The notes: a model not told the origin generated them from the letters alone. A DNA stretch of 64,000 bases from Nitrosopumilus sp. (GCA_965238275.1 OZ250186.1:1024001-1088000), one strand, 5' to 3'. Counted from the first letter of the stretch, positions 22,960-45,323 are shown. A program made the numbers and translations.

Positions 22960-23682
22960 TTATGCGGCAAATCTTGATGCGTTTCCGGAATGATCCTGCA
23001 GATCCGACTCTGGGATCCTCTCAAACAGTCCCCCTTCCGATGTTATCTTTGCCATCTTGATGTGGCTGACATCGTCTTTCTGCTCTGACTTGAGGTTTAT
23101 TGCCGCAATGGCAAGGGACACTGCATCATCCATATTCATCTCCGGGCTGTAGAACTTTTCGAGAAATCCGTTGACGTCGTCAGAGCCTGCGCCTATTGCC
23201 ACTGCTGTATACTGGACATATGTTCCGCTTGGGTCAGTCACGTATATCGAGATGCCCTTTTGATCGACTCCTGCAATGATTAGTGATACCCCGTTTGGGC
23301 GGACTCCCGAGTACTGTGTAAACTGGTGAGACTGATCTGCCAGATGCTTGGCCACTGTGGCAACCTCGACTGATTCGTCATATGTCATCCTGGTTCCCTG
23401 CGAGAAGAACCTTGCATTGTCCACCTGTACGCGTGCATCCGGAATGTAGCCTGCAGCTGCCACCCCTATGTGGTGGTCCACCTGAAATATCTTTTGTGTG
23501 ACATCCCTTGTCTGAAGGGTTCTTGGCTTCTCCTCTACTGCTATTATCACTCCCTGGCTGGTGACTGCGCCGATGGCCAGGGTTCCCCTCTTTACAGTCT
23601 CAATGGCGTATTCCACCTGGTATATCCTGCCGTCCGGCGAATACATTGTAGGTGTCATGTCGTAACCTCGTGATGCCATCAT
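22960..23682 (-). CDS. psmA: Proteasome subunit alpha
   Basis: YD...TMYSPDGRIYQVEYA, RPNGVSLIIAG, DPSG. Confidence 0.96.
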   Translation of the reverse strand: MMASRGYDMTPTMYSPDGRIYQVEYAIETVKRGTLAIGAVTSQGVIIAVEEKPRTLQTRDVTQKIFQVDHHIGVAAAGYIPDARVQVDNARFFSQGTRMTYDESVEVATVAKHLADQSHQFTQYSGVRPNGVSLIIAGVDQKGISIYVTDPSGTYVQYTAVAIGAGSDDVNGFLEKFYSPEMNMDDAVSLAIAAINLKSEQKDDVSHIKMAKITSEGGLFERIPESDLQDHSGNASRFAA

Positions 23683-24511
23683 GTCATAAAATCTCCGTTC
23701 TAAGTTAATTTAAGGGTAAGTATACAGCATGTTCCTGTTTTCGTGTCGGGACGGTGCCCCGTTCTGATACACCCTCCCTGATTCATGCCGATCTTGCAGA
23801 ATCGGTGCCTGACAGAATTCTGTCCGATGTGGATGGCATCATTTCATGTTCTGCCCATCGGGGCACCAAATATGGGCGCAATATGGAAATAGAGTTTTTC
23901 AAAGCAGTTTTGGCGAATATTTTTTTAAAATTTGTGGAATAATCTGGTGTTATCGGGGTCATTGGATGGTCTTGCGCCTGGCATCTTTTAAACAGTATGG
24001 GGGAATGGTAAAGTTGTTGGCACGTCCCCGGCCCGGGTACGGACTGCTTCCATCAGAGAAGGTGATCAAGTCATACTACGGGGTGATGGATGAGAAAATG
24101 GCCAAACATCCGGCACCCGAAGCAGCCAGGATGATCCACGTGTGTGGTGCGGCAAGTTCTTCCGGGCCTGTGCCAAAAGTTCGTGCAGGCAGTGCATGGA
24201 AGATCATGCGGGATGGCCTGCTCGGAATCAGACTCGTTCGGATCCCGCTTCATGGAGGATATGCAAACCTGAAAAAGTTTGGCTGCTGACCGTGATGGCA
24301 GTCTAGGGGCGGCAGCAGCAGCGCCGATTGCAGGATGCCGGCATGGTTGCAAAACAAGTCTCCCCCGCCTGCGAATCCACAGGCAGCATGCGTGCCAAAC
24401 CCTTTCGGACCAGACACGTCAACGACATACAAAATAAAGGCCGTTTCTCCATATTGTCAATGGACAAGGCAAACGGACGTCTTTTGTCATCATTGTGTAG
24501 GGACCTGCTGC

Positions 24512-25688
24512 ATGGCTAGGCAGCCTGACGGACCGGAACCGGCAAAACCTACGAAGGACGGGCCTGCCAAAAAAGACCGTTCCGAATACAACAAGCAGTA
24601 CAGCGAGAAGAATGCAGAGAAGATTGCCATGCGGTCGAAGGCGTGGCGGGAAGCAAACCCGGAGAAGATTGCAGCGTGGCGGGAGTGCGCGCGCGAGCAA
24701 ACCCGGAGAAGATTGCAGCGTACCGCAAGTCAAACAACGAGAAGAGTGCGGCCAGGCAGAAGAAATGGCGGGAAGCAAACCCCGAGAAGGTTGCGGCGTA
24801 CCGCAAGTCAAACAACGAGAAGAGTGCGGCCAGGCAGAAGAAATGGCGGGAAGCAAACCCCGAGAAGGTTGCGGCACTGCGGGAGGCGAACAAGAAAGGG
24901 ATGCCGCGCAGCAGAAGAAATACCGCGAGACGCACAGGGCAGAGAGTGCCGCGCGGCAGAAAAAATGGCGGGAGGCAAACCCGGAGAAGAACGCCGCGTA
25001 CGTGAAGGCGTCACAGGAGAAGAAGAAGGCAAGGGATGCCGCGATGAACAAGGGAAAAGAGCGCCAGAATGGCCGCCACCCGCCGGTTGCACGAAAGAGC
25101 GCGGGGAGCAAAGGAACCAAGGGCCGAACAAAAAAGGCCACGACTACTACTCCCGGGAAGGAAAAGTTCTCGGCGCAAGCGTACTATAAAACGTACTACC
25201 AGAAAAACAAGGAGAAGATTACCGCGCAGCAAAGGGAGTATAATTCCAAGAACAAGGAGAAGATTGCAGCGTCCCAGAAGAAGAGGCGGGCTGAGAATCC
25301 GGAGAAGGACGCGGATAAACAGAGGGCGTACTACCTGAAAAACAAGGAAAAAATAGCCGCAAGGCGCAGGGAGAACAAGAATCCGACGGTGTGGCGGGCA
25401 TACTACGAGAAGAACAGGGAGAGGATTGCCGCATACAGCAGGGAGTGGCATAAGAAGAACAAGGAGACGCGGGCGGCACAGATGAAGGAATACCGCGAGA
25501 AGAACAGGGAAAAACTGGCCGCACAACAAAAGGAGTACCGCGAGAAGAACAGGGAAAAACTGACCGCACAACAAAAGGAGTACCGCGAGAAGAACAGGGA
25601 GACGATTACGGCAAAGCGCAAGGAACGGCGCGAGAAGGACAAGGCTGCTGCTGCTGCTGCTGCTGCTGCCGCCGCCGCCGGGACGTAG
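24512..25688 (+). CDS. Highly basic Lys/Arg repeat protein, two apparent frameshifts (approx. 24690 and 24895)
   Basis: Repeats KKWREANPEK, YYQKNKEKI, KEYREKNREK continue across three frames; poly-Ala tail. Confidence 0.6.
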
Positions 25689-25784
25689 ATGTCTTGGAAT
25701 GCAGGCCCGGCACCCTGCGGGGCAAAACATGAACCCTTCGTTCACATCTTTTAAATACTGTTTTTCCGAACGAAATTTAATTAC

Positions 25785-28700
25785 ATGAACAACATCAAAT
25801 TTACCGCTTTTAGCGGTACAAAAAATAATAAATTTACAGAAAGAAACACAAACACAATAAAGAACAACAACTTACGAAAACTTACAAGCATAGCACTGAT
25901 GACGATAATGGTGGCAGGCGGACTCACGTTTGCCATACCCGGCATGGAGCCGGCACAGGCACAGAACCCGCACCTGAAGGTTTCAGCTGAGGGACAAGCA
26001 GACAACGTGATTGGCATAACCAACATCGTTGAGGTCGTGGTAATCGACGACTTCAACAGCGACGCAGGCGATGCTCCGCCAGAAGTAACTGTGGACGGCA
26101 GTGATCTTATCATGAGCCGTGCAGGTGAAACTGGCGGCGCATGGTACGGATACTTTGCAGACGTCGACATCACAGATACAGGCTTAACTGGTACCTGTGT
26201 AGACATTGATACTGACGGTAGCGGCACATGTCCCACTGAAAATCTTGTTTCAAGCACACATGGTGCAGCCGCTGTCTACACCTATGATTTGGACGGCGAC
26301 TTTGACATCATCTATCAGAGGCCCGGAGGCGACCAGACAGTAACACTTACTGCCGACGACCCCTCCTCAGACGCAGGCCTTGACAGGAACTCATATCCGC
26401 AGAACACCGAAGTAGAGATATCGATTGACGATCTTGCACTGAACGTTGACCCGACAAGCGTGGACTCGTGGACATTCACTACTGCTGAGGATGGTACACA
26501 AACCATCACCCGTAATGTAGGTGATACACCACAGACAGCTACTGACGGCGTTGAGGCGTTTTCCATAGATACGCACAACCAGGGAAGCAACCCACTGATA
26601 ACCGGTGGTAATGTGGATGAGGTAACATTTGAGGAGGACGGCAGAAACACGTCGGTATTCCTCAACAATGATTTCCGAACTACTGACGAGGCACCAAGGG
26701 GACTGTCATTTTCAGTCACATACGACAGCACCGCTACAAGTTCCGTTGGATTCAGCACGGCCAACATCGTAATAGACGCAGGAGACCAATGGAGTTCCGG
26801 CGAAGAGATCGGCATTACGCTGACTGACGGCGACGCCAACACCAGCACGCTGGATGCCAACGATCTTGACGTTTCAGATCCGAACCACATCATTCCGACC
26901 ATAGCCGTTGGAGAGCCACACACGCTTGCCAATGGTATAAGCGCGGCTATAAGCCAAACCGGTTTGGACGATGCTGATGATACTGCCTTGACTGATGGGC
27001 ACTTTAGCATGACTTCCACTGATGATGGGAGCAGCCAAAGGGTCGTAGTCAACAGTAACGTGACAGCAACATACGCCACTGACGACACAATAACCCTTGA
27101 TTTGACGTATACGTCCATACATTCCGACGACTACAACCGACTCGTGTGATCTTGGCTTCATGATGGTAAACTATGATCTTAGCGCATTCGATGGTATAGC
27201 CACCCTTGCAATTGGCTATGATGATGGTAATGCTGACACTGATGATGCCGCTGATGCTATAAATATTAGTGATAACGCTGATCTTGTTGATACTTATGTT
27301 GTTACTGCCGACAAACCGCTACCTGATACATTAAGGCTTACATTCATAACTGGCGACGATCTGGCCGGAGACGCAATAGCATTCGACATCTTCTCATTCG
27401 GTCTTACAGGCGACGACATGGGCGAGGATCCTGCCAACAGGGTCAACAACGCCATCTACAGGCTCGAACTCGAAGAGGACGGAGACAACAGCAGTGACTT
27501 TACAGGCACTCTGGAGTACATCGGACTCAACCAGGTCAACGTGCTGGAGCAATCCACGTACGAGGGCATTGACGCGTTCGGCGACTCCAATCATACTGAT
27601 CTCCGACGACGGCTCCGTCTCGGTGGACTATGACGACTTGGACTCAACCGGCGGAACCACGCTGTTTACGGCCGAGGCCGACACCCCGACACACTCTGGC
27701 GTGGTGTCCCTTGGCTCTGACGGCTACGGGGTAGCCGACACGGTAGAAATCACGGTAGAGGACGCAGACCTGAACGCTGACAGCGGAAAGGCCGACGTCT
27801 ATACGGTGGTCTCTGGCATGATCGAAATAGAACCGGCTGTAGTAGCAGATGACACTGCTGACCCACCTGTTGTGGCAAAGGATGCCGTGACAGAAACGTC
27901 AAACCTCAACGACAGGGTCGGCAGCGACCTACTGCTCGTACACCAAAACTCCAACGACGACAACCAGTTCGGCGAACAACTGCTCAGGGTATCCTTTGAC
28001 GGCGACCTCTGGACCAACCAGTGTATCGACCCAAGATTCTCTGACGCCACCAGCACCTATGGACTTGCAGACACCCAGTTCACGCTCCAGGAGACCGGAG
28101 CGGCCACCGGCGTGTTTGTCGGCACCTTCGCGGTTCCGGCAGAGCACTGTGCAAGATCAGGCAACGCTGAATCCGTCACTGGCAAGGACATCTCAGTAGA
28201 GTACATTGACTTCAGGGACGACTCCGGCTCAATCATATCGGTAAGCGCGTCTGCGGGCATACGATCCAACACCGGATCCGTAAGCCTTGACAGGACCGTC
28301 TACCCGGTACCGTTTGGCGGCGAGGGCACCACTGTCAACAACAACTCCGTATTTGAGACGCATTCAGATACGCCCCTTGGAAAGGGCGACTTGACTGTAT
28401 ATGTCAGCATCACCGATCCTGACTTTGACCAGTCATCCAACGGCATAGACCGCATCGAGATGGATGAAGGCACGGCCGCACCACTGCGCGTCGAAGTAAT
28501 TCGAGGCTCTCAGACGCACCCATTGGAGGTGGCAGGACATGATGGCGTGCCAATCCTAGAGACTGCTCCTGACTCGGGCGTATTCGAGCACGAGGTGAGC
28601 ATCTCATTCGACCAGGGCCCGTCTGATAACAACTGCCCGTCACCAGTACCGACTGACGACGTACCAGACCCCAGACCGATTGCTGAACAAAATGCACAGA

Positions 28701-30421
28701 TTCAAGAAGAGAACGCATTCACCTTGGCCGAACATTTCCAGAATCTTGCAGCAGTTCGAGAACATAACGCCGACCCAAACAACGCAAATGACCAGCAAGT
28801 TGAACCAGACAAGCCTGAACTCCGAAAGGAGGTTTCACTGACAACTCAGGGCTGTATCCTACAGGGAGACATTCTCCACGTGATATACAACGACCCGTCT
28901 GACGCATCCGGCAGTTCAAACACGGTAACTGACTCTGCAACATTCGACCTGAGAAACGGCGTACTCCAAGTTGACAAGCCGGGCACAACCGGCTACGTCA
29001 TCGGAACCGACATGATAGTGACGCTCATCGAGCAAGACCTCAACCTTGACAGCGCCGCCACAGAGACATACACCCTTGACCTGATAGAATGGGACTCTTC
29101 TGGAGGCACGGAACCGCTTAGCAACAGCGTGTTCGGCGCGACGCCATCCAACCTGCTTGAAACCGGTACCGATACCGGAATCTTCCAGGTCGTGATTAGC
29201 GTTCCACCTGAGATAGACGACCCCCTCGAAAGAGGTGAGGAGATCACCCTGACGTACAACGACTGGGGACCATCTGGCTCTGACCATGTCGGAGACAAGG
29301 ACGAGGAGATAACTGAGACTGCATACACATCCAACTTTGGCGCGTCAATCGAGCTGGACCAGAAGGTCTATACTTGGACTGACAAGGTCTACATAACCAT
29401 AGTCGCACCAGACCACAACTTCGATGCAGACCAGGTTGACGAGATAGGCGGCGACAATACGAACTACCCAATCAACATAAAGACGCAAGAAGCCGATATT
29501 GAGGGATACAAACTTGTCGAGACGGGTGCCGATACCGGCATCTTTAGCGGCGAGTTAATCCTGATTGGAGTTGCAAACGATGACCTTGACAAGGATCTTG
29601 AAGAATCTGGAGGAGCCGGACCAACTGACGGCCGCCTAGCGGCTGAGGACAGCGACGGGCTTGCAATAATCTTTGAGAACTCTGACGGCGACATAGTACG
29701 CGCCTCTGCAATAATCCAGTGGAACGTAGGCGAAGTCGAGTGGCTCGAGGCAAGTTATCCTGCACTCGGATCAGGAATAGTGAGGGTCATTGATCCTGAC
29801 ATGAACCTGAACCCGGAGGCAGTCGACAACTTTGATGTCAATGTCTGGTCAGACTCTGACGTAGGCGGAATCAGCCTTACCGTTACTGAGACCAACGCTG
29901 CAACCGGCATCTTTGAAGGCACAGTCTTCTTTGATGACGATTCCATCAGCAGCGGTCACAGGCTCAACGTGGAAGAAGGAGATACCGTAGTAGCAGAGTA
30001 CGACGACGTAACCTCACCGATAGAAGACGAGACCTCGGTTTCGGCAACCACTCTGATCGGCACGATAGTGCCGCCACTGGAGAGGGCGCCAATCAACAAC
30101 CTGAGGGCAGTCGACACGTTTGACAACAGCATCGGCGTAGCATCCGTTGGCCAACAAGTGGTCATATCTGCCGACCTGTCAAACGGCCAGGACAGGGATC
30201 AGAAGTTTATCTTCCTGATACAGGTCCAGGATGAAAACGGCGTCACAGTCTCGCTCAACTGGGTACTGGGAACGCTGGCCGCAGGCCAGTCATTCAGTCC
30301 GGGAGCATCATGGAACCCGACAGAGGCAGGCACGTATGACGTGACTGCGTTCGTTTGGGAATCCATCGACAACCCGACAGCACTCTCACCAACCGCAACG
30401 ATAGCATTAACTGTAAATTAG
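25785..30421 (+). pseudogene. S-layer protein paralog A (Nitrosopumilus type), two +1 frameshifts near 27145 and 27588
   Basis: RKLTSIALMTIMVAGGLTFAIPG signal peptide; ETG.DTGIF.G repeats; FVWESIDNPTALS C-terminus; three ORFs colinear with paralog B. Confidence 0.88.
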
Positions 30422-30435
30422 AAAACACACACCCC

Positions 30436-30453
30436 TTTTCTTTTTTTTATTTT
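30436..30453 (+). terminator. Poly-T terminator after S-layer A (mirror copy after B near 33637-33651)
   Basis: TTTTCTTTTTTTTATTTT just after the stop. Confidence 0.65.
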
Positions 30454-30476
30454 GAATACGGCCTAACGTGGGTTAT

Positions 30477-30522
30477 GCATGCGTGCCTGCATGCGTGCCT
30501 GCATGCGTGCCTGCATGCGTGC
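30477..30522. repeat. 12-bp tandem repeat (GCATGCGTGCCT)n; degenerate inverted copy near 33568-33613
   Basis: Directly visible. Confidence 0.85.
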
Positions 30523-30542
30523 AATGATCCATTACTTGCGTG

Positions 30543-31523
30543 ATTGTAAAGACCATAAAGTACGTGACAGTCAGGCACTGGTGCAGGGACTGCAAGAAAC
30601 AGGTCTCTGCCAAGCCGCCCGAAACTGCTCCGCACGCCCGCTACGGCGCCAACGTCGGCGCCGTGCTCAACTTTTTAAACATGTCCGGGCTGTCCCACGC
30701 AAGATCCGTCGAATTCGCAGGCGACGCGCTTGGCACGCCCGTGTCCTGCTCGTCTGCATACAGGAACAAGATAAGCAGGGCCAGACAGATGGCCCCGGAA
30801 CGCGACGCCGTGAGGGAAGAGATCCTAAAGGAGCCGCACCTGGGGGCCGACGAGTTCCACTGGCCACTGGAAGGTGGCAGGCGCGGCTACGGCGTGGTCG
30901 CACTCGGCAAGAGATCGTGCCTGGTGGAAATAGTAGACTCCCGCAAGATAAAGACCATCAAGGGCGTGCTGCCAGGCTACGGGGGAACCCTCACGCAGGA
31001 CTCGTACCCGGCGTGGCTCCATGTCGGGTCGGCCCGCCAAATGTGCGTGGTCCACCAGGAGCGCCTGGTGCAGAAGGATCTGGAGTGGAACCCAGGCGGG
31101 GACGTGGCCGAATTCTTGGCCGGGCTGTCTGCCGTGCACAAAAAGATCTACCGCGCTTGGCGCGTCAAGGACCCGCATTCCAGGGAAGTGGCAGCTGACT
31201 GCATAGACTCGGAACTAACGGGGCTGTTTGCCGCCCCGTACAAAGACGACAAGTACGGCACCATCGCCAAATACCGCAAGCGGCGCTACCGCGAGGGGTA
31301 CTACATGACAACCTGCCTGCGGATCCCGGGCATCAGTCCGGACAACAACGCGGTGGAGAGGGCCAACCGAAGGTTTGTCTCGGTGAGGAATGACGGCGGG
31401 GGCAACCGGTCCCGGAAGGGCATGGACGCAAATTCCGTGCTGTTCACCTTGCTGGCCACTGACCGCGTCCGGGGGGAAAAGTTCTTCGACCACCTGGTGC
31501 GTTCCGCGTCCGGCGACGGCTGA
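30543..31523 (+). pseudogene. 5'-truncated IS66-like transposase
   Basis: ADEFHW, QDSY, QMCVVH, DNNAVERANR; lacks the N-terminus and left TIR. Confidence 0.85.
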
Positions 31524-31544
31524 CAACGGAGCCTGCGTCACCAT

Positions 31545-32945
31545 TTATCCGGCACGATCCGCGCTCTCGGATGGGGAGACTGCGCGAGTATAGGCGCGCA
31601 AAGCCAGCGGAACTTCAAAAAGCGAATCACTTACCTTTTTTCCATATACTTTCCAGTCACCCACAATGGGTGCATTCTCAAAAGTCAGCGTGCGTGTTAT
31701 GTCTCCCCTGCACACAAAATTACATATGGGATGTTGCTGTCCGTCAGGAGATTCAAGATAATAATATGCATATCTGCTACTGGTTGATGGATTTAGTGAC
31801 ATTTTAACAACGACTGTTGTGGCTACCGTGGTGGTTTTTTGCAAATCAATTTCCTCCTCAAACAATCCCGTGCCGGTAAAATGCACGTCGTGGTCGCTCG
31901 TATTCAAGGTAATATTGCCATTGACTTCGAGTGGTAAATCTATCTGCGAGCTCGTGCCTGCATGCGGTCCAAACAGATAATGACGCGTAAATGACTTTGT
32001 ATTGTTTACCTCAACCATGCTGACATGGTGGTAGCCGTCATTTTTGAGGCCACAATGTACTGTTGGCAATTCTGTCATTGTGACCTGTCTAAATGCAGGA
32101 TCACCAGGCCATTGGTTGTGGTGGCCATATTGTGTCGTATAACCCAACTCGATGCCCTTTGCCACATTTGCCAACACCGTTCCTCCGGAATTCGTCGCCC
32201 GTTCAATAACCGCGTTACAATCCTTGGCATAGAAATCAGTAGACAGTGTTGCCGGATAGGACGGATATGCACTGTAATGACACCTGTATCCATTTGTGTA
32301 GCCATCATATCTGCCTGGCACGCATTCAATATAGTCAGTTTGTGCATAGGTAGACCACAGGTGGCTACTACTGACACGGAGTTCATTTATGACCTCGCTA
32401 GTATAATTGAGAGAACTTACCACGTCATGAATTTCAGGCGCGAACCCGTCGTCGACAATGGTATGCTGCGTGAGATCATTCGGGCTGGATACAATACTGA
32501 CTGTCGTGCCAGGCGATGCCCAACCAGTGATGTTGATTGGCTGACGCGTGGGTTGGTAGTCCTGCAGTCTGGCAACAGCCGTGTTTGGCCCGCCAATGGT
32601 TGAATCGCCTGTCAGTTCCAGCCACCCACCCATGTCGTCTCAGGAAGAATACGTGCTTTCAATGATATCGTTGCTGCCTGTCAGACGATCTTCTCCCTGT
32701 AATCTGTATTCACCGGAAAATGTCGGCAGCGGGATTGTGACGGGGCGGTCGTCTTGTTCCACCATCCCGGCAAAACCAAGCGTGCCCTCACGCATGTATG
32801 GGCGTTCGGCACCATGCCCGGCATGTGTCGAATTTCCCCACAACATCATCGCGCCCGGGGTATCATGTATGACAATTTGCGGCAGGTAGCCGAACCCGAC
32901 GCCAGCTCCGGTCTTTGTTGTGCCAGACACGGCGGCAAGCGGCAT
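31545..32945 (-). pseudogene. Fragment of large secreted protein, paralogous to 53261-56974; in-frame TGA at 32640-32642
   Basis: IVIHDTPG..LWGNST..PY..G...FA.. aligns with IVTKNAEG..VYGNGT..PY..G.FEFA; P-domain-like LESPDG...GDWKV. Confidence 0.55.
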
Positions 32946-33531
32946 ACTTGAGATCTGGTTACATGAGACAATGAGGAGCGCGCCCGTCCTGATACCCGGA
33001 TTCGGTGTACTCTGGGGCGTGCTTTCAGGCATCGGACACGCCCACGCGTCGTTCTTCATGATAGAACACAGCATGGTCACGTTATCGGCCGAACACATGT
33101 TGGTATTGCTTCCGTTCCTTTCATTGTACATGCTGGCCCAGGGCATCATGATGAGGCGCGGGGTGCTGTTCATGCTGGAATTGGTACGCCGTGATGGTGC
33201 AGCAGAACAATACCACGAGTCTGCAATGATGGCATCTGCGTGGGGCGAGCAGGAAGCAAGCCGTGGTTCGTCAGGCCTGGTAAGCCGGCTGTCACCCATG
33301 GCAAAGCCGTTTTTGCGTGATGTGGGAATCTTCTTCGCGCTGCTGTTTGCGTCCGCGACGCTGACGTTTGTAGTATGGGGGGATACTCCGTCAAGCACCA
33401 CGCTCCAGGCCTTCTGGATGTACGACGGCATGTTCGGCTACCTGCTGGCTTTGCCTGGCAGTATAGACGTGCTTGCGCCGCTAAACGAGTTCGATTCAGT
33501 GATGGACACCGTATGGGAATCCCTTACTTGA
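32920..33531 (+). CDS. Membrane protein fragment, possibly pilus platform (T2SS-F/TadC-like)
   Basis: Several TM segments; GIMMRRGV...EASRG pattern; weak. Confidence 0.35.
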   Translation: MPDTAASGILEIWLHETMRSAPVLIPGFGVLWGVLSGIGHAHASFFMIEHSMVTLSAEHMLVLLPFLSLYMLAQGIMMRRGVLFMLELVRRDGAAEQYHESAMMASAWGEQEASRGSSGLVSRLSPMAKPFLRDVGIFFALLFASATLTFVVWGDTPSSTTLQAFWMYDGMFGYLLALPGSIDVLAPLNEFDSVMDTVWESLT

Positions 33532-33666
33532 TCTCCGGTAAAATGACACCACGCAAGTAATGGATCATTGCAGGCATGCATGCATGCACGCGTGCAGGCA
33601 CGCATGCGTGCATAACCCACGTTAGGTGTTATCTAAAATAAAAAAAAGAAAAGGGGTGTGTGTTTT

Positions 33667-36600
33667 CTAATTTACAGTTAATGCTATCGTTGCGGTTGGT
33701 GAGAGTGCAGTTGGGTTGTCGATGGATTCCCAAACGAACGCAGTCACGTCATACGTGCCTGCCTCTGTCGGTGTCCATGATGCTCCCGGACTGAATGACT
33801 GACCTGCGGCCAGCGTTCCCAGTACCCAGTTGAGCGAGACTGTGACGCCGTTTTCATCCTGGACCTGTATCAGGAAGATAAACTTCTGATCCCTGTCCTG
33901 GCCGTTTGACAGGTCGGCAGTTATGACGACCTGTTGGCCAACGGATGCTGCGCCGATGCTGTTGTCAAACGTGTCGACTGCCCTCAGGTTGTTGATTGGC
34001 GCCCTCTCCAGTGGTGGCACTATCGTGCCGATCAGAGTGGTTGCCGAAACCGAGGTCTCGTCTTCTATCGGTGAGGTTACGTCGTCGTACTCTGCTACTA
34101 CGGTATCTCCTTCTTCCACGTTGAGCCTGTGACCGCTGCTTATGGAACTGTCATCAAAGAAGACTGTGCCTTCAAAGATGCCGGTTGCCGCATTGGTCTC
34201 AGTCACGGTAAGGCTGATTCCGCCTACGTCAGAGTCTGACCAGACATTGACATCAAAGTTGTCGACTGCCTCTGGGTTCAGGTTCATGTCAGGATCAATG
34301 ACCCTCACTATTCCTGATCCGAGTGCAGGATAACTTGCCTCGAGCCACTCGACTTCGCCTACGTTCCACTGGATTATCGCAGAGGCACGTACTATGTCGC
34401 CGTCAGAGTTCTCAAATACTACTGCAAGCCCGTCGCTGTCTTCAGCTGCTAATTGGCCGTCAGTTGGTCCGTATCCTGAAGAATCTTTAGTCTCCCTGTC
34501 AAGGTCGTCGTGTTCAACTCCAGTCAGGATTAACTCGCCGCTAAAGATGCCGGTATCGGCACCCGTCTCGACAAGCTTGTATCCCTCAATCTCGGCTTCT
34601 TGCGTCTTGATGTTTATTGGATAGTCGGCATCTTGGCCGCCTATCTCGTCAACCTGGTCTGCATCGAAGTTGTGGTCTGGTGCGACTATGGTTATGTAGA
34701 CCTTGTCAGTCCAAGTATAGACCTTCTGGTCCAGCTCGATTGACGCGCCAAAGTCAGACGTGTATGCGACCGCAGTTATCTCCTCGTCCTTGTCTCCGAC
34801 ATAGTCAGAGCCGGATGGTCCCCAGTCGTTGTACGTCAGGGTGATCTCCTCGCCTCTTTGGAGGGCCTCGTCATCTATCTCGGGTGGAACGGTAATCACG
34901 ACCTGGAAGATTCCAGTGTCGGTACCGGTTTCAAGCAGGTTGGATGGCGTCGCGCCGAATGGGTCGGTGGTACAGCCTGTGCTCTTAAGCGAACAGGTGC
35001 CCGCATCAGAGTCCCATTCTATCAGGTCAAGGGTGTATGTCTCTGTGGCGTCGCTGTCAAGGTTGAGGTCTTGCTCGATGAGCGTCACTATCATGTCGCT
35101 TCCGATGACGTAGCCGGTTGTGCCCGGCCTGTCAACTTGGAGTACGCCGTTTCTCAGGTCGAATGTCGCAGAGTCAGTTACGGTGTTTAGACTGCCTGAT
35201 GCGTCAGACGGGTCGGTGTACTGCACATGGAGGATGTCTCCCTGCACTATACAGCCGTCCAGACCTGGCGGACAATCGCTGCTGTCAGGACCCGTGTTGT
35301 ATGAGATGGTCTCTGTGTGCTCGAATACGCCCGAATTGGGTGCAGTCTCGTCGATCGCGTCTTCAACCGTCCATTTGAGGGTTTCAGAACCACGGATTAT
35401 GCTTATCTCCAGAACACCGGGGTCAGTACTGTCTATTCCGTTGGATGACGTGTCAAAGTCAGAATCGCTGATGCTGACATAGACTGTCAAGTCGTGCTGT
35501 AGAAGATCGGCGCCGAATGTTTCAAATGCGGTATCGTCCTCAGCCTCAGTAACGATACCAATTGGTACCGGGTAGACGGTCCTGTCAAGGCTCACGGATC
35601 CGGTGTTGGATCGTATGCCCGCAGAATCGCTTACCGTTATGGTTGAACCTGAGTCGTCCCTGAAGTCAATGTATTCGACTGAGATGTCAGCGCCTGTGAC
35701 GCCTGCTGACTTTCCGTTAGGATGACAGTAGTCTGCCGGAACCGCGAAGGTGCCGGTGAACACGCCTGTGGCGTCTCCTGTCTCCTTGAGAGTAAAGTCC
35801 GTAGCGTCAAGTCCGGTCATGTCGGTACATCCGGCTGCCCATTGGTTTCCGTCGATTGATACACTGAGCAGTTCGCCAATGTCTTCGTTGGACGTTTCGG
35901 CACCGACTATGTCACTTGCGATCGTCGTATAGACGTCTGGCTTCCCGCTATCAACGTTCAAGTCAGCGTCCTCTACGGTCACGGTAACAGTGTCTGCCAC
36001 CTTGTAGCCGTCAGAGTCGAGTGACACTGCACCCGAGTGTGTCGGGGTGTCTGCCTCGGCTGTGAACAGCGTATCCTGGCCATTGGCGTCCTTGTCAAGA
36101 TAGTCTACGGAAACGGAGTCGTCGTCAGATATCAGTATGATGTCTACATCAATTGCCTGAATGGCAGCGTATGTGGTTGCGTCCAGTATGTTGACTTGGT
36201 TGAGTCCGATGTACTCCAGAGTGCCTGTAAAGTCACTGCTGTTGTCACTTTTCTCTTCGAGTTCAAGCCTGTAGATTGCGTTGTTGACATTGTCAGTTCC
36301 GTCTATAAGGCCGAACGAGAATACGTCGATCACGATCATGCCATCTGATGCGGTTCCGCTGTACCTGATGTTGACAGTATTGTCACTACCTATGTGCCCA
36401 GTAACATCTACCAAATCACGCCCGTCACGATCCACAGTCACACCAATACCGTTGATGCTGACTGATGCTCCGCTACCGAGCGCGCTTACATCATAGTTCA
36501 GCATGTGCACGCCTTCAAAGGTACCGTCTGGAATAACCAGGGTGCCCTCGGCGCTACCTGAACTGGATGCGGCAACTCTGCCGTTATCATCGCCTCCAAG

Positions 36601-38502
36601 TGTGAACGGAGTTCCAATCGTTATGGTTGGAATGATGTGGGATGCGGCTGTAACCGAGAGGTTGTCTTCGTTGAGTGAGTTGGTGTTGGCGTCACTGTCT
36701 GTCAGCGTTATGCCGATGTTCTCGCCAGAGTTCCATTCGTCTCCTGCGTCGATCACGATGTTGGTCTCGCCGAAGCCTATGGAGGATGTCGTGGTGTTGT
36801 CATATGTGACTGAAAATGACAGTCCCCTGTCGGCCCCTGTGGTGGTGCGTATGTTTGGCGTGTCGCCTGGTGCGTTGGTGAATACTGAGTCGTTTGAGCT
36901 ATCCTCGCTGAATTCTATCAAGAATTCGCCGGTGCTGCTTACGCTACAGGATTCAACACACTCTACCAAAGCGACGTTGCCGTTGTTGTTTGTGGAGAGG
37001 CTAAAGCCTTCGTCGGTTGAAACCTTGATTCCGCCACCATCCACATCTGCATCGATTGTAGGTGCAGCAGCGACAGCATCAGTATGGGCCTGAGTTGCGG
37101 TCGCAAGGTCAGCGGTGTATTCTGTATGTGCAGAACCTTCTACGTTGCCACCTGGGCCGTCTCCTGCGATTACCTCGTAGGCTACCTGTGCGGTACCCTT
37201 GTAGGCAACACTAGTGATCTCAGTTTCTGTCTTGTCTCCATTAACTGTGGCGTAGTTTGCATCAGCTATACCACTTGCAACAGTGGCATCATCAGTACCA
37301 GAAGGATAGGTAAATCCATTGTCCGAACCATAGTGAGTATTAAGATCGTCGTCGACAGCACTTACATATCCTGATGGAGCCACGGTGATGTCACCGATTG
37401 GTTGGAATCCGGCGATTACCTCGTATTCTATCTGTGCGATGCCCTTGTAATCGGCTACCTGCACAGCAGTAGGAGGATCGTCAAAGTCGATGGTTTTGTC
37501 TCCAAGGATTGATTGTGCGCGTGCCGCTTGTTCCAAGGGTACGGTGGGGTCGTCAACGACCTCATTGGCCCTCGTAATGAGAAGGTCTCTCTTATCAACT
37601 GCAGCAGCAATGGCAGTAGCCGGAACTGCTGCGGCGATCTTGGCGTCTCTGTCTGTTACGGCTTCAGCGATCTTGGTGTCTCTGTCTGTTACGGCCTTGG
37701 CATTGGCGGTCGTTCTGTCTGCTCCGGCCATAGCTAGGGCTTCAGCGTTAGCAGCAGTGCTTGAAACAGATGCCGGAATACCTCTGTAGTATGAGGTTCC
37801 ATCACTGCCCAAGTACCAAACATCGTCAGATGTTGGGTCCACGTTGAGTGCCAAGTCGTCAAGCGTGATGATCACGCCTGTACCTTGCGGGTATAGCGAC
37901 CTGTCGAGGCTTGCGCTCTCAGACGGATCGTCAAGATCCAAGACTACCGTCTGAGGGTTTGCCGGTTTCTCGTAAACTATGTCGAATGTGCCGTCGTCCA
38001 GGTTAAGGACTTGGACGAGTTGGGCAGGTGCATTATCAGTTGCAAAGGCAGGTTCGCCCATGACAAGGTTATTAATAGCTGTCTGTTCTGCTTCTGTGAT
38101 TTCAGCATCACCGTCACCATCAACAGTTTCAGTACCACTGACGATACCATCCATATCCGTCTCAAGCTGGACAATTAAGCCAGTGTTTTGGATGCCTGCG
38201 GATGCAATGTATGCATACCATGCGCCAGAGAAGAAGGCCATTTCAATGTCAGCGCCGTCAACGGTCACCCGAAGTTCATCACCTGACTCGTTTACGTCGC
38301 CGTCAGAAACCACGATCTCTACGATGTTGGTAGTGGCAATCACGTTGCCCGTGTTTAGTAGCTCAGCTGAAACCGCCAAGTGTGGGTTGCTTAATCCTGC
38401 TGCGTGTGCCGGCTCCATGCCGGGTATGGCAAACGTGAGTCCGCCTGCCACCATAATCGTCATCAGTGCTATGCTTGTAAGTTTTCGTAAGTTGTTGTTT
38501 AT
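33667..38502 (-). CDS. S-layer protein paralog B, intact (about 1600 aa)
   Basis: Same signal peptide and C-terminus as A; very acidic; first ATG at 38463, frame extends to an ATA at 38502. Confidence 0.92.
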   Translation of the reverse strand: MNNNLRKLTSIALMTIMVAGGLTFAIPGMEPAHAAGLSNPHLAVSAELLNTGNVIATTNIVEIVVSDGDVNESGDELRVTVDGADIEMAFFSGAWYAYIASAGIQNTGLIVQLETDMDGIVSGTETVDGDGDAEITEAEQTAINNLVMGEPAFATDNAPAQLVQVLNLDDGTFDIVYEKPANPQTVVLDLDDPSESASLDRSLYPQGTGVIITLDDLALNVDPTSDDVWYLGSDGTSYYRGIPASVSSTAANAEALAMAGADRTTANAKAVTDRDTKIAEAVTDRDAKIAAAVPATAIAAAVDKRDLLITRANEVVDDPTVPLEQAARAQSILGDKTIDFDDPPTAVQVADYKGIAQIEYEVIAGFQPIGDITVAPSGYVSAVDDDLNTHYGSDNGFTYPSGTDDATVASGIADANYATVNGDKTETEITSVAYKGTAQVAYEVIAGDGPGGNVEGSAHTEYTADLATATQAHTDAVAAAPTIDADVDGGGIKVSTDEGFSLSTNNNGNVALVECVESCSVSSTGEFLIEFSEDSSNDSVFTNAPGDTPNIRTTTGADRGLSFSVTYDNTTTSSIGFGETNIVIDAGDEWNSGENIGITLTDSDANTNSLNEDNLSVTAASHIIPTITIGTPFTLGGDDNGRVAASSSGSAEGTLVIPDGTFEGVHMLNYDVSALGSGASVSINGIGVTVDRDGRDLVDVTGHIGSDNTVNIRYSGTASDGMIVIDVFSFGLIDGTDNVNNAIYRLELEEKSDNSSDFTGTLEYIGLNQVNILDATTYAAIQAIDVDIILISDDDSVSVDYLDKDANGQDTLFTAEADTPTHSGAVSLDSDGYKVADTVTVTVEDADLNVDSGKPDVYTTIASDIVGAETSNEDIGELLSVSIDGNQWAAGCTDMTGLDATDFTLKETGDATGVFTGTFAVPADYCHPNGKSAGVTGADISVEYIDFRDDSGSTITVSDSAGIRSNTGSVSLDRTVYPVPIGIVTEAEDDTAFETFGADLLQHDLTVYVSISDSDFDTSSNGIDSTDPGVLEISIIRGSETLKWTVEDAIDETAPNSGVFEHTETISYNTGPDSSDCPPGLDGCIVQGDILHVQYTDPSDASGSLNTVTDSATFDLRNGVLQVDRPGTTGYVIGSDMIVTLIEQDLNLDSDATETYTLDLIEWDSDAGTCSLKSTGCTTDPFGATPSNLLETGTDTGIFQVVITVPPEIDDEALQRGEEITLTYNDWGPSGSDYVGDKDEEITAVAYTSDFGASIELDQKVYTWTDKVYITIVAPDHNFDADQVDEIGGQDADYPINIKTQEAEIEGYKLVETGADTGIFSGELILTGVEHDDLDRETKDSSGYGPTDGQLAAEDSDGLAVVFENSDGDIVRASAIIQWNVGEVEWLEASYPALGSGIVRVIDPDMNLNPEAVDNFDVNVWSDSDVGGISLTVTETNAATGIFEGTVFFDDSSISSGHRLNVEEGDTVVAEYDDVTSPIEDETSVSATTLIGTIVPPLERAPINNLRAVDTFDNSIGAASVGQQVVITADLSNGQDRDQKFIFLIQVQDENGVTVSLNWVLGTLAAGQSFSPGASWTPTEAGTYDVTAFVWESIDNPTALSPTATIALTVN

Positions 38503-38699
38503 GGATCCTGTTTTTATCCCCTGTGTAATGCCATCTTCCCTGAACCGTTCTGGTCATGCCATTACAATCTCCCTTGATGCGTGTGAGGGAATATGTATCT
38601 TAGTGCAGTGCGCCGAGTACGCTCGGGTCGCTTATAAATACAGACATAATTCAGTTCTGTAACATCGTAGAGAGATAATTCTCAGTGTAAGACGGGGGA

Positions 38700-38975
38700 G
38701 GTGGATGAGGAGGAATACGGCGTATCTTCATTGATAGATCAAGGATTTGCAGCAGGCAAGGCATTCACTGCATCTTTCTGTTCTGCATCATACAATGCAT
38801 CAAAGTAAAACTTGTTGATCTCCATGGTTTCAAGTTTTTTTCTTCACATAGCTTTCGCTTAAAGTGGGAGTGTTCAGATCCACAAACACTTCCAATTCCA
38901 AACTTGGCTGGTTGAACAGTGCGATGTTCTCTGTCGCCTTCCACATCTGATAACCCAGACGATTCAGAACACGTA
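38700..38975 (-). pseudogene. Small gene remnant cut by IS630, HicA-like pattern
   Basis: Manual translation IRVLNRLGYQMWKATENIALF...VFVDLNTPTLSESYVKKK. Confidence 0.35.
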
Positions 38976-40243
38976 TACCAGCAATGAAAAATTCATATCA
39001 AAATCGCTCATAAATTTTTGATGCAACAGCCGTCTCTGGAAATTACGAGGTACGTTGAATTCCCAAATGACGAGAAAAGACGCTCCAAACATTAGACATT
39101 GCATGCTCTGGTGCGCCGTGCATGGCACACGCTAGGCGGCGTGGGTCCGGTGTGGTTTGATGTCGTTCTAGATGGCCCTGTACAGAAAGTTTTCAACGAC
39201 CAGATTCGGTTTTTTGTACCTCGTGTACCTGGTGATCGCCTCGCGGAGCATGCGCAGGCTGGTGTACTGCACGTCAAGCACTGCCCGTTTGAGATCCCTC
39301 CAGTACGTCTCTATGGCGCTCAGGTCCGGGGTTGCAGTCGGCAGGAAGACTATCTCCAGGCCGTCTGTGCCATCAAGCAGTTTGCGTATGTTTGATGCCC
39401 TGTGCTGGGAGGCCTTGTCCATGATCAGGCAGATCTTCTTGAACCTGTACATCGCCTGCCTTAGAAAGTCCTCAAAGGTGTCCTTGGTAAACGCATCGTA
39501 CTGCCGGAACATTCCCCTGCCGTCCGTGGTGATCAGGCCGTAGAGTATCGTCTTGGAGTGTGAGCCGGTGTACGTGAAAAACGCCCGTATTCCCTTCCTG
39601 GTGTAGCCGCGTCTTCGCGGCCGCGCATCGGAGATTACTATGGACTCGTCCTGTATCGCTACGACTGTTCCTTCACTGTTCTTTTTTTATAAGATCCGGC
39701 ATCTCTTTTTGGAATTTCCTGATCTCCTCGTCAGGTGCCCTTGCATGTTTTCCTACGGGAACCTTCTGGGAGTAGCCCCAGCTCCGCAGCATGTACCGCA
39801 CGTGCGTGAGGTTGTACTTTACCCCCGTCTTCTGCCTGATGTATTCCCGCATCTCCCTGCCCGTCCAGATCAGCTTACTGCGCGCGTTTTTCCGAATCCG
39901 CCCCATGTCTGCCCTGCTTACCTTGGTCGGCCTGCCGGAGCGCGGAAGGTTTCCCAGCCTGTCAAAGCCGACTTCCCGATAGCGTTTGTGCCACTTGCAG
40001 CCCCACGCCGGCGACTTGCCAAGGGATTTTGCAGCATCGCTCATGGCTGCTCCATCGCGCTTGATCATGATTATCAGCATCATGCGATCCTTGACATTGC
40101 AGTCTTTCTCAGCGGCGTATCTTTTCAACATCGTCTTGATCTTCATTGACTATGTGATTCGGGATGAGCATAGAACTGCATGCGAAAAAAATCTTTTACA
40201 ATCGTATGAAATATTTTTATTCACGGATTTATGTTCCGCGGTA
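38976..40243 (-). mobile_element. IS630-family element, copy 1 (transposase 39168-40146 in two frames)
   Basis: TA-flanked end TACCAGCAATGAAAAATT; RSGRP, MDKASQH, P.ATPDLSAIE; A-run at the frame change. Confidence 0.88.
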
Positions 40244-40430
40244 TACAACAACACGTCCCGGGAGGCATTGGAGTTTGCAGCATACGCAAAGGCCACGTAC
40301 GGCCAGTGCAAAGCAGTCTGCGAATCCACCGGAAACCACTGGATAAAGACTGTAGATGCCTTTGAATCTGCCGAGATCCCGCTGATGCTTGCCAACCCGT
40401 TCAAGATCAAGGCAATAGCAGGGGCCAGCA
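40244..40430 (+). pseudogene. IS110-family transposase fragment
   Basis: AVCESTGNHW...LMLANPFKIKAIA. Confidence 0.75.
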
Positions 40431-40431
40431 T

Positions 40432-40633
40432 GGCTCTGGTAGATTTTAGTGATCAGATCACCAAAATTTACCACCAAGGTGCAAACATGGCTTATCTCAC
40501 TTTTGAACAGCCTTGTGGAGAATACCACACTTTTGAACACCTTGGTGAAATATGGCCGGATTGAATCTGGAGAAGATCCAAAGACACACTTTTGAACAGT
40601 AAACAGTAGAGATCACTAGAATTTAACAGAGCC
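40432..40633. mobile_element. MITE-like element with IS903-type TIRs
   Basis: GGCTCTGGTAGATTTTAGTGATC versus inverted GGCTCTGTTAAATTCTAGTGATC; three internal CACTTTTGAACA repeats. Confidence 0.65.
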
Positions 40634-40706
40634 ATGCTGTTGCTGTTGCTGATCGTGTGTGGCTACAAAGAGCCGCCCGAGCCCCCACCGCCGGTGCTAC
40701 CCTGAG

Positions 40707-41753
40707 TCAATTCTGGGAAGACTGCATAAGGTTACTGTTTTTGTACATTTCTATGGGAGTCTTGTAGATGGAGTTAATTTTTCTAAACACTTCTTTGTAA
40801 CAATCCAAATTGTTCGCACGTAGAGTTGCGTAGCATATCAAAATCCATCCAATCTGTTTCCAATATTCATCATCAAACCGATCCACCTTTTCTAAAAACT
40901 GACTGAAATCCACCTTCGGTGATGACATCACGGTTGTCCTGACAAACGCCTCAAGCTCATTCACTTTTCCTAATGCCAAATCTATGTCGTCGGAAGGCAT
41001 TGGACACATGCAGCAAGAGTTCGTTCTATCCTTTAATACTTTGTCAACCAATTCTCTGTCGTTCTCGTAAAAATGACAGCTTCCGCAGAAATGGTAATAA
41101 TTCCCCAACTCAAGCTCCAGTTTTGACTCCAGCACCGCCTTTACGTATTCCTGTAGCATCGTAAAGAGAAACACGTCATACGGAAATAACCTAAATGCAT
41201 TCTGACTCCGCATGTACGTTATTGCATGAAGTTTTTTATCTCTGATCAGGTACTGCAGATTCAACGTACATGGAACCTCATCTGCTAGCTGGTGTTGGTC
41301 AAATTGAGGTAGGTAGACTGACGCCACGGCCCTGCGCTTATTGTGGTCCGTGCTCAAAACATTTATCGCATGCTGGATCTGATTCATATGCTGTATTCCG
41401 AAGAGTCGAGGTCCGTATGCGCCAATCATGCGCGACCCGTCGGATGAATGCCTGTCCGATGATGGGGCGTAATATGTAATTTCTTTTGTATTGAAGCTTC
41501 CGCGATACGTCCAGAGAAACTGTCCCACAAGCTGAAAGATGTTTGGAGTGTATTCCTTTACTGTCACTATGCGCGACAGAGGATCCTTCATCTCAAATTT
41601 GTAGGATATGATTTCTTGATAATCTGGTTTGCATTTATGGCATGAAAGATGTTCGGACACGTTGTTCGAACATGTATGTTTTTCACACCTGCGCGATACG
41701 GGCTTCCCGTCTTTTATGATGTCATTGAGTAGTCGTTTCCACTCCGTTATCAT
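40707..41753 (-). CDS. Thymidylate-synthase-fold protein, (d)CMP hydroxymethylase-like
   Basis: GAYGPRL, RRAV, VPCT, MRSQN, PYDVF (Asp at the ThyA Asn site), GSCHFY. Confidence 0.85.
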   Translation of the reverse strand: MITEWKRLLNDIIKDGKPVSRRCEKHTCSNNVSEHLSCHKCKPDYQEIISYKFEMKDPLSRIVTVKEYTPNIFQLVGQFLWTYRGSFNTKEITYYAPSSDRHSSDGSRMIGAYGPRLFGIQHMNQIQHAINVLSTDHNKRRAVASVYLPQFDQHQLADEVPCTLNLQYLIRDKKLHAITYMRSQNAFRLFPYDVFLFTMLQEYVKAVLESKLELELGNYYHFCGSCHFYENDRELVDKVLKDRTNSCCMCPMPSDDIDLALGKVNELEAFVRTTVMSSPKVDFSQFLEKVDRFDDEYWKQIGWILICYATLRANNLDCYKEVFRKINSIYKTPIEMYKNSNLMQSSQN

Positions 41754-43497
41754 CGGGCACTCCTCTTCCGAAGAACTGCTTTTTTTGCAGTTCTCCTATG
41801 ACGTCAATTACCAAACGTGTATGGAAACGTTTCACACCAAACGACATATCGTCTATCAGATTGTCTATGATCTCAGGTAACGGACGCTTGGAATAATTTT
41901 TCTTCCACAGATATATCAGTGACGCGGCAACCTCCAGCCATTTTGGGTCATCGAGATTGGCTTTGAGTGCTTGCTTAAATTCTCGAATCTTTGTCTCTGC
42001 GCCTTCGGATAACGCTGACGGTTCGGGTTCAAATGTGTGTCCGTAGGCATCTTTGGTCACTTCCTTACAGTAAGGCCCGTGTATGTATACCAGCAATGAA
42101 AAATTCATATCAAAATCGCTCATAAATTTTTGATGCAACAGCCGTCTCTGGAAATTACGAGGTGCGTTGAATTCCCAAATGACGAGAAAAGACGCCCCGA
42201 ACATTAGACATTGCATGCTCTGGTGCGCCGTGCATGGCACACGCTAGGCGGCGTGGGTCCGGTGCGGTTTGATGTCGTTCTAGATGGCCCTGTACAGAAA
42301 GTTTTCAACGACCAGATTCGGTTTTTTGTACCTCGTGTACCTGGTGATCGCCTCGCGGAGCATGCTCAGGCTGGTGTACGGCACGTCAAGCACTGCCCGC
42401 TTGAGATCCCTCCAGTACGTCTCTATGGCGCTCAGGTCCGGGGTTGCAGTTGGCAGGAAGACTATCTCCAGGCCGTCTGTGCCATCAAGCAGTTTGCGTA
42501 TGTTTGATGCCCTGTGCTGGGAGGCCTTGTCCATGATCAGGCAGATCTTCTTGAACCTGTACATCGTCTGCCTTAGAAAGTCCTCAAAGGTGTCCTTGGT
42601 AAACGCATCGTACTGCCGGAACATGCCCCTGCCGTCCGTGGTGATCAGTCCGTGGATTATCGTCTTGGAGTGCGAGCCGGTGTACGTGAAAAACGCCCGT
42701 ATTCCCTTCCTGGTGTAGCCGCGTCTTCGCGGCCGCGCATCGGAGATTACTATGGACTCGTCCTGTATCGCTACGACTGTTCCTTCGCTGTTCTTTTTTT
42801 TATAAGCTCTGGCATCTCTTTTTGGAATTTCCTGATCTCCTCGTCAGGCGCCCTTCTTGCATGTTTTCCTACGGGAACCTTCTGGGAATAGCCCCACCCG
42901 CGCAGTATCTGGCGCACATATCCGAGTTCGTACCTTACTCCGGTCTTCTGTTGGATGTATTGCTGCATCTCCATGCCCGTCCAGACAGGTTTCCTGCATG
43001 CGGCCTTTCTGATCTTCTTCATGTCTGCCTTGCTCGCCTTGGTCGGCCTGCCGGAACGCGGCATGTTTCCCAGCCTGTCAAATCCGACTTCCAGGTAGCG
43101 CTCGTGCCACTTGTAGCCCCACGAGGCTGACTTTCCCAGGGATTTTGCAGAATCCCTCATGGTTATCCCGTCACGTTTGACTCTGATGATCAGCATCATG
43201 CGGTCCTTGGTATCGCAGTCTGTCTCAGCGGCGTATCTTTTCAACATCGTCTTGATCTTCATTGACTATGCTACGTGAAATAAGCATAATTTCACATGGA
43301 GTTAAAATATTTTACAATCACATCAATTTTTCATCTTTGGTATACCAACTGTATGTATAACCAAGGTCTACGCCATATTCTTGCAACAGGTATATGGTCT
43401 TCTGAATCTTTAGCCGATCATCGAACTCGTCAACAACAACAATTTTCTCTTTATCCATACATTTAAACACGTCTGCGACTGCTTTGCGTTCAGGCAT
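41722..43497 (-). pseudogene. YwgA/Panacea-like protein (172 aa reconstructed) interrupted by IS630 copy 2
   Basis: Joining at the TA gives RLKIQKTIYLLQEYGVDLGYTYSWYIHGPYC...WLEVAASLIYL. Confidence 0.75.
42088..43342 (-). mobile_element. IS630-family element, copy 2 (transposase 42280-43262)
   Basis: TIRs TACCAGCAATGAAAAATT / TACCAAAGATGAAAAATT, TA duplication; 3' part nearly identical to copy 1. Confidence 0.92.
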
Positions 43498-43522
43498 GCA
43501 TCTTGTAGTTATGCCATAGTTA

Positions 43523-45290: not shown

Positions 45291-45323
45291 CATAGTTATA
45301 TGTTCTACCGTCGTCACTAACGC

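Follow-up and report, generated by a model that had tools for sequence, protein, structure and literature searches.

The slpA and slpB genes of Lactobacillus acidophilus, two opposed surface-layer (S-layer) genes, share sequence identity in a 5' region and in the part coding for the cell-proximal C-terminus. In Campylobacter fetus, the sapA homologs (Blaser, Dworkin et al.) are served by one promoter through inversion that depends on homologous recombination; secretion of the sap proteins does not involve a signal peptide, and it is their N-terminal part that is conserved. For the L. acidophilus slp segment (Boot et al. 1995/1996), inversion has been demonstrated, and the silent gene occupies the expression site in 0.3% of chromosomes (PMC3666127). 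Here, we analyzed a tail-to-tail pair of S-layer genes, named A and B, in a 64,000-nucleotide (nt) stretch of the archaeon Nitrosopumilus sp. (GCA_965238275.1 OZ250186.1:1024001-1088000), referred to as the window; coordinates are window positions unless another genome is named. The ends of these two genes are kept alike by gene conversion, and we tentatively read the pair, with less than even confidence, as paralogs under concerted evolution and without a dedicated switch.

In N. maritimus, the S-layer protein Nmar_1547 (NmSLP) and its paralog Nmar_1201 are 91% identical, and one of them is expressed far more than the other; the outer N-terminal domains of NmSLP are glycosylated, and its membrane-facing base contains the C-terminal domains 9-10 (PMC11153153). 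In ammonia-oxidising archaea, the S-layer concentrates ammonium and at the same time makes up the entire exposed surface (PMC11153153), so it is what viruses and the sponge host see. Multiple S-layer paralogs in sponge-associated ammonia oxidisers have already been reported (PMC6790972), and the Haloferax S-layer glycoprotein gene shows intragenic recombination, with a surface that varies between strains and viruses as a driver under discussion (PMC5867893). A full-text literature search returned no description of twins arranged tail to tail in which the ends are converted and one partner is start-less, and none of concerted evolution confined to membrane-proximal S-layer domains. An initial annotation of the window, made from the sequence alone, had proposed an invertible S-layer locus and stated that no such switch was known in Thaumarchaeota; the same search found none described. 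The genes, as delineated by open reading frame (ORF) calls, are as follows:

S-layer gene A: 25785..30421, plus strand; three ORFs in the assembly (25785-27149, 27160-27633 and 27494-30421), 1544 codons when bases 27145 and 27589 are left out
S-layer gene B: 33667..38463, minus strand; intact, 1598 codons from the ATG of MTIMVAGG

A and B (38463-33667 in its reading direction) converge, with stop codons 3.2 kb apart, and span 12.7 kb overall. B matched NmSLP (PDB 8c8k) with an E-value of 3.1e-289 in five stretches covering query residues 1-1595, which take in the signal peptide MTIMVAGGLTFAIPG and the C-terminal domains, and A was collinear with B by tblastn. Judged by this homology, A and B are NmSLP-family thaumarchaeal S-layer paralogs, and the two facing paralogs of the initial annotation are borne out. 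Proteins of this family form a hexagonal lattice of Ig-like domain arrays on the cell. No Pfam family was detected in A, B or the spacer ORFs between them, and no Rfam family within 23000-41000. Both proteins are strongly acidic (D+E 17.4-17.9%, K+R 3.4-3.7%), with a computed pI at the calculator floor of 4.05; in the NmSLP family, such negative charge serves to capture ammonium. Identity between the two is about 50% across the outer two thirds and 90-98% over the C-terminal third. As the initial annotation had described, the middles alternate between conserved and divergent parts (blastn blocks at 78-82% identity between unalignable stretches), and sequence comparison likewise found the upstream regions of A and B unrelated. 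All comparisons of A with B were made by blastn, tblastn and protein-guided codon alignments; a global nucleotide alignment was rejected because it misplaced the 5' ends, owing to an insert of about 250 codons in B.

Like L. acidophilus slpA/slpB, A and B are two opposed S-layer genes on a short segment that share a 5' region and the cell-proximal C-terminal part and differ in their exposed parts, and one gene stands at a putative promoter site. The initial annotation had pointed to this likeness, and A indeed lies behind a canonical TATA box and an ATG, both of which B lacks. Unlike in Lactobacillus, the host is an archaeon, the proteins belong to an unrelated family of Ig-like domain arrays, the partner also lacks a canonical start codon, an insertion sequence (IS) lies in the spacer, and inversion of the locus is hypothetical. 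The pair resembles the C. fetus sap locus in having full-length surface-layer copies with conserved 5' ends and variable bodies; it differs in that the larger conserved part is C-terminal, that there are two copies only, and that nothing indicates a movable promoter. With Nmar_1547/Nmar_1201 it shares the protein family and the presence of two paralogs in one genome, but the two N. maritimus paralogs have an overall identity of 91%, and the available text of their report does not present them as neighbors or as inverted, whereas A and B lie tail to tail, 3.2 kb apart. In contrast to the between-strain recombination of a single gene reported for Haloferax, the present case is an inverted pair with homogenised ends within one genome. 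The shared sequences at the two ends are listed below:

5' shared block, A arm: 25863..25957, plus strand; 12 leader codons and the signal peptide MTIMVAGGLTFAIPGMEPA, one mismatch in 95 nt
5' shared block, B arm: 38405..38499, minus strand; inverted relative to the A arm
3' homogenised block, A arm: 28850..30542, plus strand; last ~520 codons and 121 nt of 3' flank
3' homogenised block, B arm: 33550..35256, minus strand; 92.2% identity with the A arm (blastn)
12-nt microsatellite: 30476..30522, plus strand; TGCATGCGTGCC repeated 3.9 times, perfect, in the 3' flank common to A and B

Repeats this long and this alike are far beyond chance. At the 3' end, the initial annotation had reported about 870 bp of near-identity running past the stop codon; the overrun stands, as A/B homology continues for 121 nt beyond A's stop and ends at 30542, and the length does not, since the block extends over 1.7 kb at 92%. 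Its ungapped part (29216-30518 against 34872-33570) contains 80 mismatches in 1303 nt, and the final coding stretch (29680-30421) only 19 in 742 nt (97% identical). The B-side counterpart of the microsatellite is degenerate (33569-33613). At the 5' end, the reported 95-bp block with one mismatch was recovered, the mismatch being at 25907 and leaving exact runs of 44 and 50 nt in a whole repeat of about 95-99 nt; its signal peptide aligns from residue 15 of PDB 8c8k.

To place these similarities in time, a sister genome (M) was used, whose S-layer genes include M1, the ortholog of B, and M2. Housekeeping genes of the two genomes are 92-94% identical in nucleotides, and the background synonymous divergence (dS) between them is 0.19-0.24. 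Between A and B, dS is 0.07 in the signal peptide, 1.25 in the N-terminus, 0.70-0.98 in the middle, 0.17-0.19 in the C-terminus and 0.07 in the last 230 codons. The initial annotation had named uniform dS along the genes as grounds for doubt, and dS turned out to be strongly non-uniform. Measured against the between-genome background, dS at the ends dates their homogenisation to after the split of the two genomes. Phylogenetic trees changed accordingly along the genes. In the middle (B residues 501-1050), B was sister to M1 at 79% identity with a Shimodaira-Hasegawa-like approximate likelihood-ratio (SH-aLRT) support of 99, and A fell outside; in the C-terminal trees, A and B were sisters (100), and M1 grouped with M2. 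The approximately unbiased (AU) test rejected the A+B grouping in the middle (p = 0.021) and the B+M1 grouping in the C-terminus (p below 1e-40), the p-values being descriptive as the groupings were chosen after the trees were seen. From about codon 1015 of A onward, A-B identity is 88-99%, versus 62-88% for A-M1. Thus, gene conversion has taken place between A and B at their ends.

The 5' end calls for more caution. The first 18 nt of B's block, AACAACAACTTACGAAAA (38499-38482), are the same as in A and unlike those of M1, so recombination, on this comparison, has reached B's 5' block since this genome and the sister genome diverged. However, the four genes of the two genomes (A, B, M1 and M2) all carry an 80-nt core of the block with almost no variation, and the first 35 codons show 85% mean nucleotide identity across eight congeners. 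The block that the initial annotation had put forward as the crossover site of a switch is present, but by itself it is weak evidence for one. A 41-nt invariant core of the block gave no match in a scan of metagenome contigs.

The same homogenisation of ends has occurred independently in M1 and M2, though these genes lie 156 kb apart, and copies in direct orientation with equal C-terminal scores were found in three congener genomes (G158, G141 and G153). It follows that end homogenisation needs no invertible locus. This generality, together with the unequal expression of the N. maritimus paralogs and the absence of an adjacent recombinase, leads us to favor a static reading of the locus. A and B would be two functional NmSLP-family paralogs built on one "chassis", alike at the ends (the signal-peptide block and the C-terminal ~500 codons) and different in the middle. 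Repeated gene conversion between the inverted copies and a family-wide constraint on the 5' block would keep the ends alike, and the N-terminal and middle domains would be outward-facing and anciently diverged. A, at the canonical expression site, would presumably be the major coat protein, and B a minor or alternative coat protein expressed from weaker signals of its own. Recombination between the inverted arms would sometimes invert DNA, the 3.0-kb spacer often and the 12.4-kb segment rarely, such inversion being a by-product and not a dedicated switch; the inverted orientation would persist because direct repeats this long would delete. We infer that programmed switching is absent, that B is expressed in situ and that the promoters are used in this way.

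Judged from alignment offsets against 8c8k and the domain limits given in PMC11153153, the most homogenised part would correspond approximately to NmSLP domains 9-10, i.e. the membrane-facing base with the proposed anchor, and the divergent part to the outer glycosylated domains. This points to a division of labor in which the base is kept identical by gene conversion and the outer domains diverge to a dS of about 1; the latter differ sharply even between genomes that are 92-94% identical in housekeeping genes.

Across the middle, A-B identity equals A-M1 identity in aligned 40-codon windows. The conserved internal blocks of A and B are therefore, on this evidence, a matter of constraint and not of recent exchange, which leaves the suggestion of the initial annotation that internal crossovers produce chimeric S-layers without support. 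This result also bears on a second possibility, cassette conversion from a silent donor without any inversion, in which B would act as a reservoir whose middle is copied one-way into the expression site by means of the end anchors; the partial copies of the sister genome could serve likewise. Both ends are indeed matched, as double-anchored replacement requires, gene conversion is demonstrably active there, and the S-layer genes of the two genomes differ in number (two versus four in the sister genome), position and N-terminal alleles, which suggests frequent allele replacement (N-terminal dS between B and M1 is 0.81, against a background of 0.2). However, the equal identities indicate no A/B transfer in the middle since the split, and no A/B chimeric contig was seen among the contigs of public sequencing runs, for which we used Logan (k-mer) contigs of runs X1, X2 and X3 and of the RNA run X20. 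Loose contig ends at 28918, 28931 and 35175 were considered as A/B chimeras and rejected, as they belong to a third sequence variant that is neither A nor B. Cassette conversion therefore appears improbable. As for the sister genome itself, two of its four S-layer copies are interrupted or partial. M1 (L028 9279-15749) is situated between genes whose orthologs adjoin each other in the present genome (G000:C1:1727142-1728042), so the ortholog of B occupies a different chromosomal site there.

The assembly itself has to be considered at this point, because the locus could be an artefact that joins, head to head, the alleles of a single gene from two strains. Judging by the runs containing it (those with related sequence include sponge metatranscriptomes), the genome appears to derive from a mixed natural sample, and no listed contig spans a repeat arm. 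Compared with the flanks, the unique parts of A and B also have a lower summed contig depth, which might reflect strain heterogeneity, although contig depths are not comparable and no inference was drawn from them. On the other hand, the genome is a single 2.2-Mb contig of 99.9% completeness, and in contigs of three runs from two studies the unique sequence of both genes recurs with 0 substitutions, as do the spacer-to-B junction and B's 5' flank. Moreover, the middles of A and B, at a dS of about 1, are far more divergent than strain alleles, and independent assemblies of relatives show the convergent arrangement too. Such an artefact is thus very hard to credit. The closest named relative of this genome in the collections is a metagenome-assembled genome, Nitrosopumilus sp. 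(OZ244651.1).

The same contigs clarify the reading frame of A. In the assembly, A passes from frame 0 to frame 1 near 27145 and from frame 1 to frame 2 near 27589, corresponding to two +1 frameshifts. Base 27145 is absent from the contigs of X1, X2 and X3, and base 27589 from those of X1, the only run covering it; when both are omitted, A reads through 1544 codons with no stop. Apart from differences within the IS and a +1/-1 pair in B that compensates itself, these are the only single-base discrepancies listed, and the run contigs otherwise match with 0 substitutions. An intact A allele thus exists in three runs and two studies; the extra bases may be consensus errors or real mutations of the assembled strain. 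Annotation of the assembly would make A a pseudogene, whereas the gene is intact in public short-read contigs. A close relative (G017, L031 9503-13757) has its only S-layer gene split into two overlapping open frames of 932 and 501 codons, which could be a frameshift or an assembly error, as in A.

The two genes differ most clearly in their start regions, where two TATA-like boxes were located:

TATA-like box TTTTAAATAC: 25749..25758, plus strand; putative promoter element, 26 nt before A's ATG (which opens MNN...)
TATA-like sequence TATTTATAAG: 38631..38640, minus strand; ~100 nt upstream of an ATT codon ahead of B

The box and ATG of A probably constitute the canonical S-layer expression site, producing a leaderless mRNA: box, spacing and start recur at M2 in the sister genome, and a TATA-like box was recognized by eye in 11 of the 15 congener copies with a canonical ATG. 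The frame of B is open for 30 codons ahead of its first ATG at 38463, and no ATG, GTG or TTG occurs in this stretch back to the in-frame TGA at 38556-38554. An ATT at 38529-38527 coincides with the ATG position of M1 and is a possible start of B, and TATTTATAAG is a possible weak promoter of B's own; the upstream region of B is unrelated to those of A, M1 and M2. B nevertheless keeps about 1100 unique codons open and shows a dN/dS (ratio of nonsynonymous to synonymous divergence) of about 0.4 against M1 at background dS. B is under purifying selection and must therefore be expressed at least sometimes. Expression in place could use the box at 38640-38631, the IS located upstream on the same strand, the ATT or the internal ATG; otherwise B would be activated through recombination with the site of A, whether by inversion at the 5' block or by cassette conversion. 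Of the 13 contigs from the RNA run X20, none reached 99% identity and all lay in shared or conserved segments, so the run is uninformative on which copy is expressed.

Related genomes were then compared (G000 denotes this genome and the other G numbers denote congeners). Among 151 genomes of the genus, 107 contain a match to the C-terminal 516 residues of B (E ≤1e-90), 29 of them at least two. The initial annotation had suggested such a comparison, and convergent close pairs were found in G142 and G138: on contig C2 of G142 (stops 1.8 kb apart), on its contig C1 (2.3 kb) and in G138 (16.4 kb). The C2 twins of G142 (L046+L047, G142:C2:30000-56000) possess arms of 100% identity, about 1.8 kb long at the 5' side and about 3.1 kb at the 3' side, which flank a 2.1-kb cassette at 66-86% identity. 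Taken together, the twin loci of G142 and G138 have kilobase-long arms of 87-100% identity, at which far more frequent recombination would be expected. The C1 pair (L045, G142:C1:1-18000) has the same arrangement with other cassette alleles and another spacer gene, and no reciprocal cassette swap was seen between the two G142 contigs. Cassettes of G138 and G142 are only 44-59% identical, too far apart for orthology, so an evolutionary flip is not detectable between them.

Several of these observations weigh against a static pair. B has neither a canonical TATA box nor an ATG, and its expression in place requires either an ATT start or a signal peptide without a charged n-region. In all three twin loci with both 5' ends visible (G000, G142 C2 and G138), one copy has a TATA-like box and an ATG and the partner is start-less, its homology beginning just within the leader-coding sequence (the G138 partner has an in-frame TGA); since G142 and G138 share flanking genes, these amount to about two independent cases. 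The partners in G142 and G138 are start-less as well as intact, and their upstream regions are GC-rich, contain no TATA-like box and adjoin a divergent neighboring gene. By contrast, 15 of 16 direct or dispersed congener copies keep the ATG (17 regions and 16 copies were examined, two regions being without the signal-peptide core). Start-less partners are easier to explain as silent cassettes activated by recombination. For the box, the dispersed copies are less uniform: it is absent from one of two copies in G036 and from three of the four copies examined in G136. The latter genome (L062-L065) has 10 S-layer C-terminus matches; all four copies examined keep the ATG, and one has the box at the canonical distance, a pattern that resembles one expression site with promoter-less copies.

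The recurrence of start-less yet intact partners and the resemblance to Lactobacillus slp are what speak for an inversion switch of the L. acidophilus slpA/slpB type, in which only A's site would hold a promoter and a start codon. Recombination at the 5' blocks would flip 12.4 kb, placing the body of B behind the TATA box, ATG and leader of A and moving the body of A to the silent site. Such a switch would fit the canonical box and ATG of A, common to M2 and congeners and missing from B; the intactness of B, which is under purifying selection all the same; the first 18 nt of B's block, which follow A and not M1; and the identical arms around a variable cassette in G142. The bacterial precedent (PMC3666127) would fit as well. 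Contig evidence is less favorable. All nine listed contig joints skip sequence on one strand and none changes strand, and the contigs break inside the repeat: those of X1-X3 end at 25928, 38434 and 38470, within the 5' repeat, and therefore cannot link flank to body. The one long joint, from 25358 to 34401 (side 22, X1 only), fell below the tool's reliability guide and was disregarded. In addition, exact identity at the 5' block is limited to 44 + 50 nt in a core that is conserved in all four genes anyway, no recombinase lies adjacent, and, if the frameshifts of A are real, the assembled strain has a broken A and B at the "silent" site, so that B would be expressed in place. Taken together, an inversion switch is unlikely in our judgment, though far from negligible.

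A broader proposal combines the two recombination routes: sponge-associated Nitrosopumilaceae might possess an archaeal expression-site/silent-copy S-layer system whose faces are swapped either by inversion or by cassette conversion. The inverted partner would start just inside the leader-coding sequence, with no promoter or start and with 1600-2470 intact codons, and the gene-converted ends would serve as crossover sites, so that the outward "face" is exchanged on a common membrane-proximal base. The twin design recurs in G000, G142 and G138; the sister genome and G136 show it less strictly. We regard this as a serious possibility that nevertheless stays on the doubtful side. If start-less copies are activated by recombination, programmed surface variation would exist in an archaeon; the surface seen by viruses or the sponge host would change, with anchoring and ammonium handling unchanged.

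Returning to the window, the sequence between and beside the two genes comprises the following elements:

IS66-family element: 30541..31645, plus strand; 1105 nt, transposase ORF 30540-31523, abutting the end of the A/B 3' homology
Spacer ORF of 362 amino acids: 31545-32633, minus strand; last ~100 nt inside the IS, no Pfam family
Spacer ORF of 203 amino acids: 32920-33531, plus strand; no Pfam family
IS630-like element: 39168..40146, minus strand; helix-turn-helix (HTH) and DDE_3 ORFs (PF13358, PF13592), ~0.5 kb upstream of B and on B's strand

The IS66-family assignment is supported by Pfam PF03050 (E 5.5e-15, 56 bits, cut-off 23.1); the NCBIfam IS66 equivalog scored 124.6 bits, under its cut-off of 180. 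The ends of the element were set by two other genomic copies at 97-98% identity (three copies in all). The unique spacer comprises 31545..33531, and its segment 32902-33210 is matched in the sister genome at 56% identity. The IS630-like element is present in 15 genomic copies and is multi-copy in the sister genome too. A-side synteny with the sister genome stops at 23884; together with the IS elements, this places the locus in a plastic, IS-rich region. Upstream of B, 39000-50500 contains at least five different multi-copy elements with 13-25 copies each in this genome and many copies in the sister genome; the first of these is the IS630-like one, whose transposase is divided between two ORFs.

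A site-specific invertase mechanism of the Hin/Din type was considered and rejected, given that no site-specific recombinase gene adjoins the locus and that the serine recombinase family PF00239 had no match in the genome. The nearest match to PF00589 (tyrosine recombinase), at 51497-51826, is weak (28.4 bits) and lies 13 kb from the 5' block. It belongs to a 513-codon open frame, is one of six such hits in the genome and is probably part of a mobile element. Finally, the region upstream of A (24335-25688) contains a Lys/Glu/Arg-rich repeat gene without a Pfam family, which consists of 45-nt and 78-nt tandem units, has overlapping open frames at 24335-25189 and 24612-25688, and ends in (GCT)x8.7.

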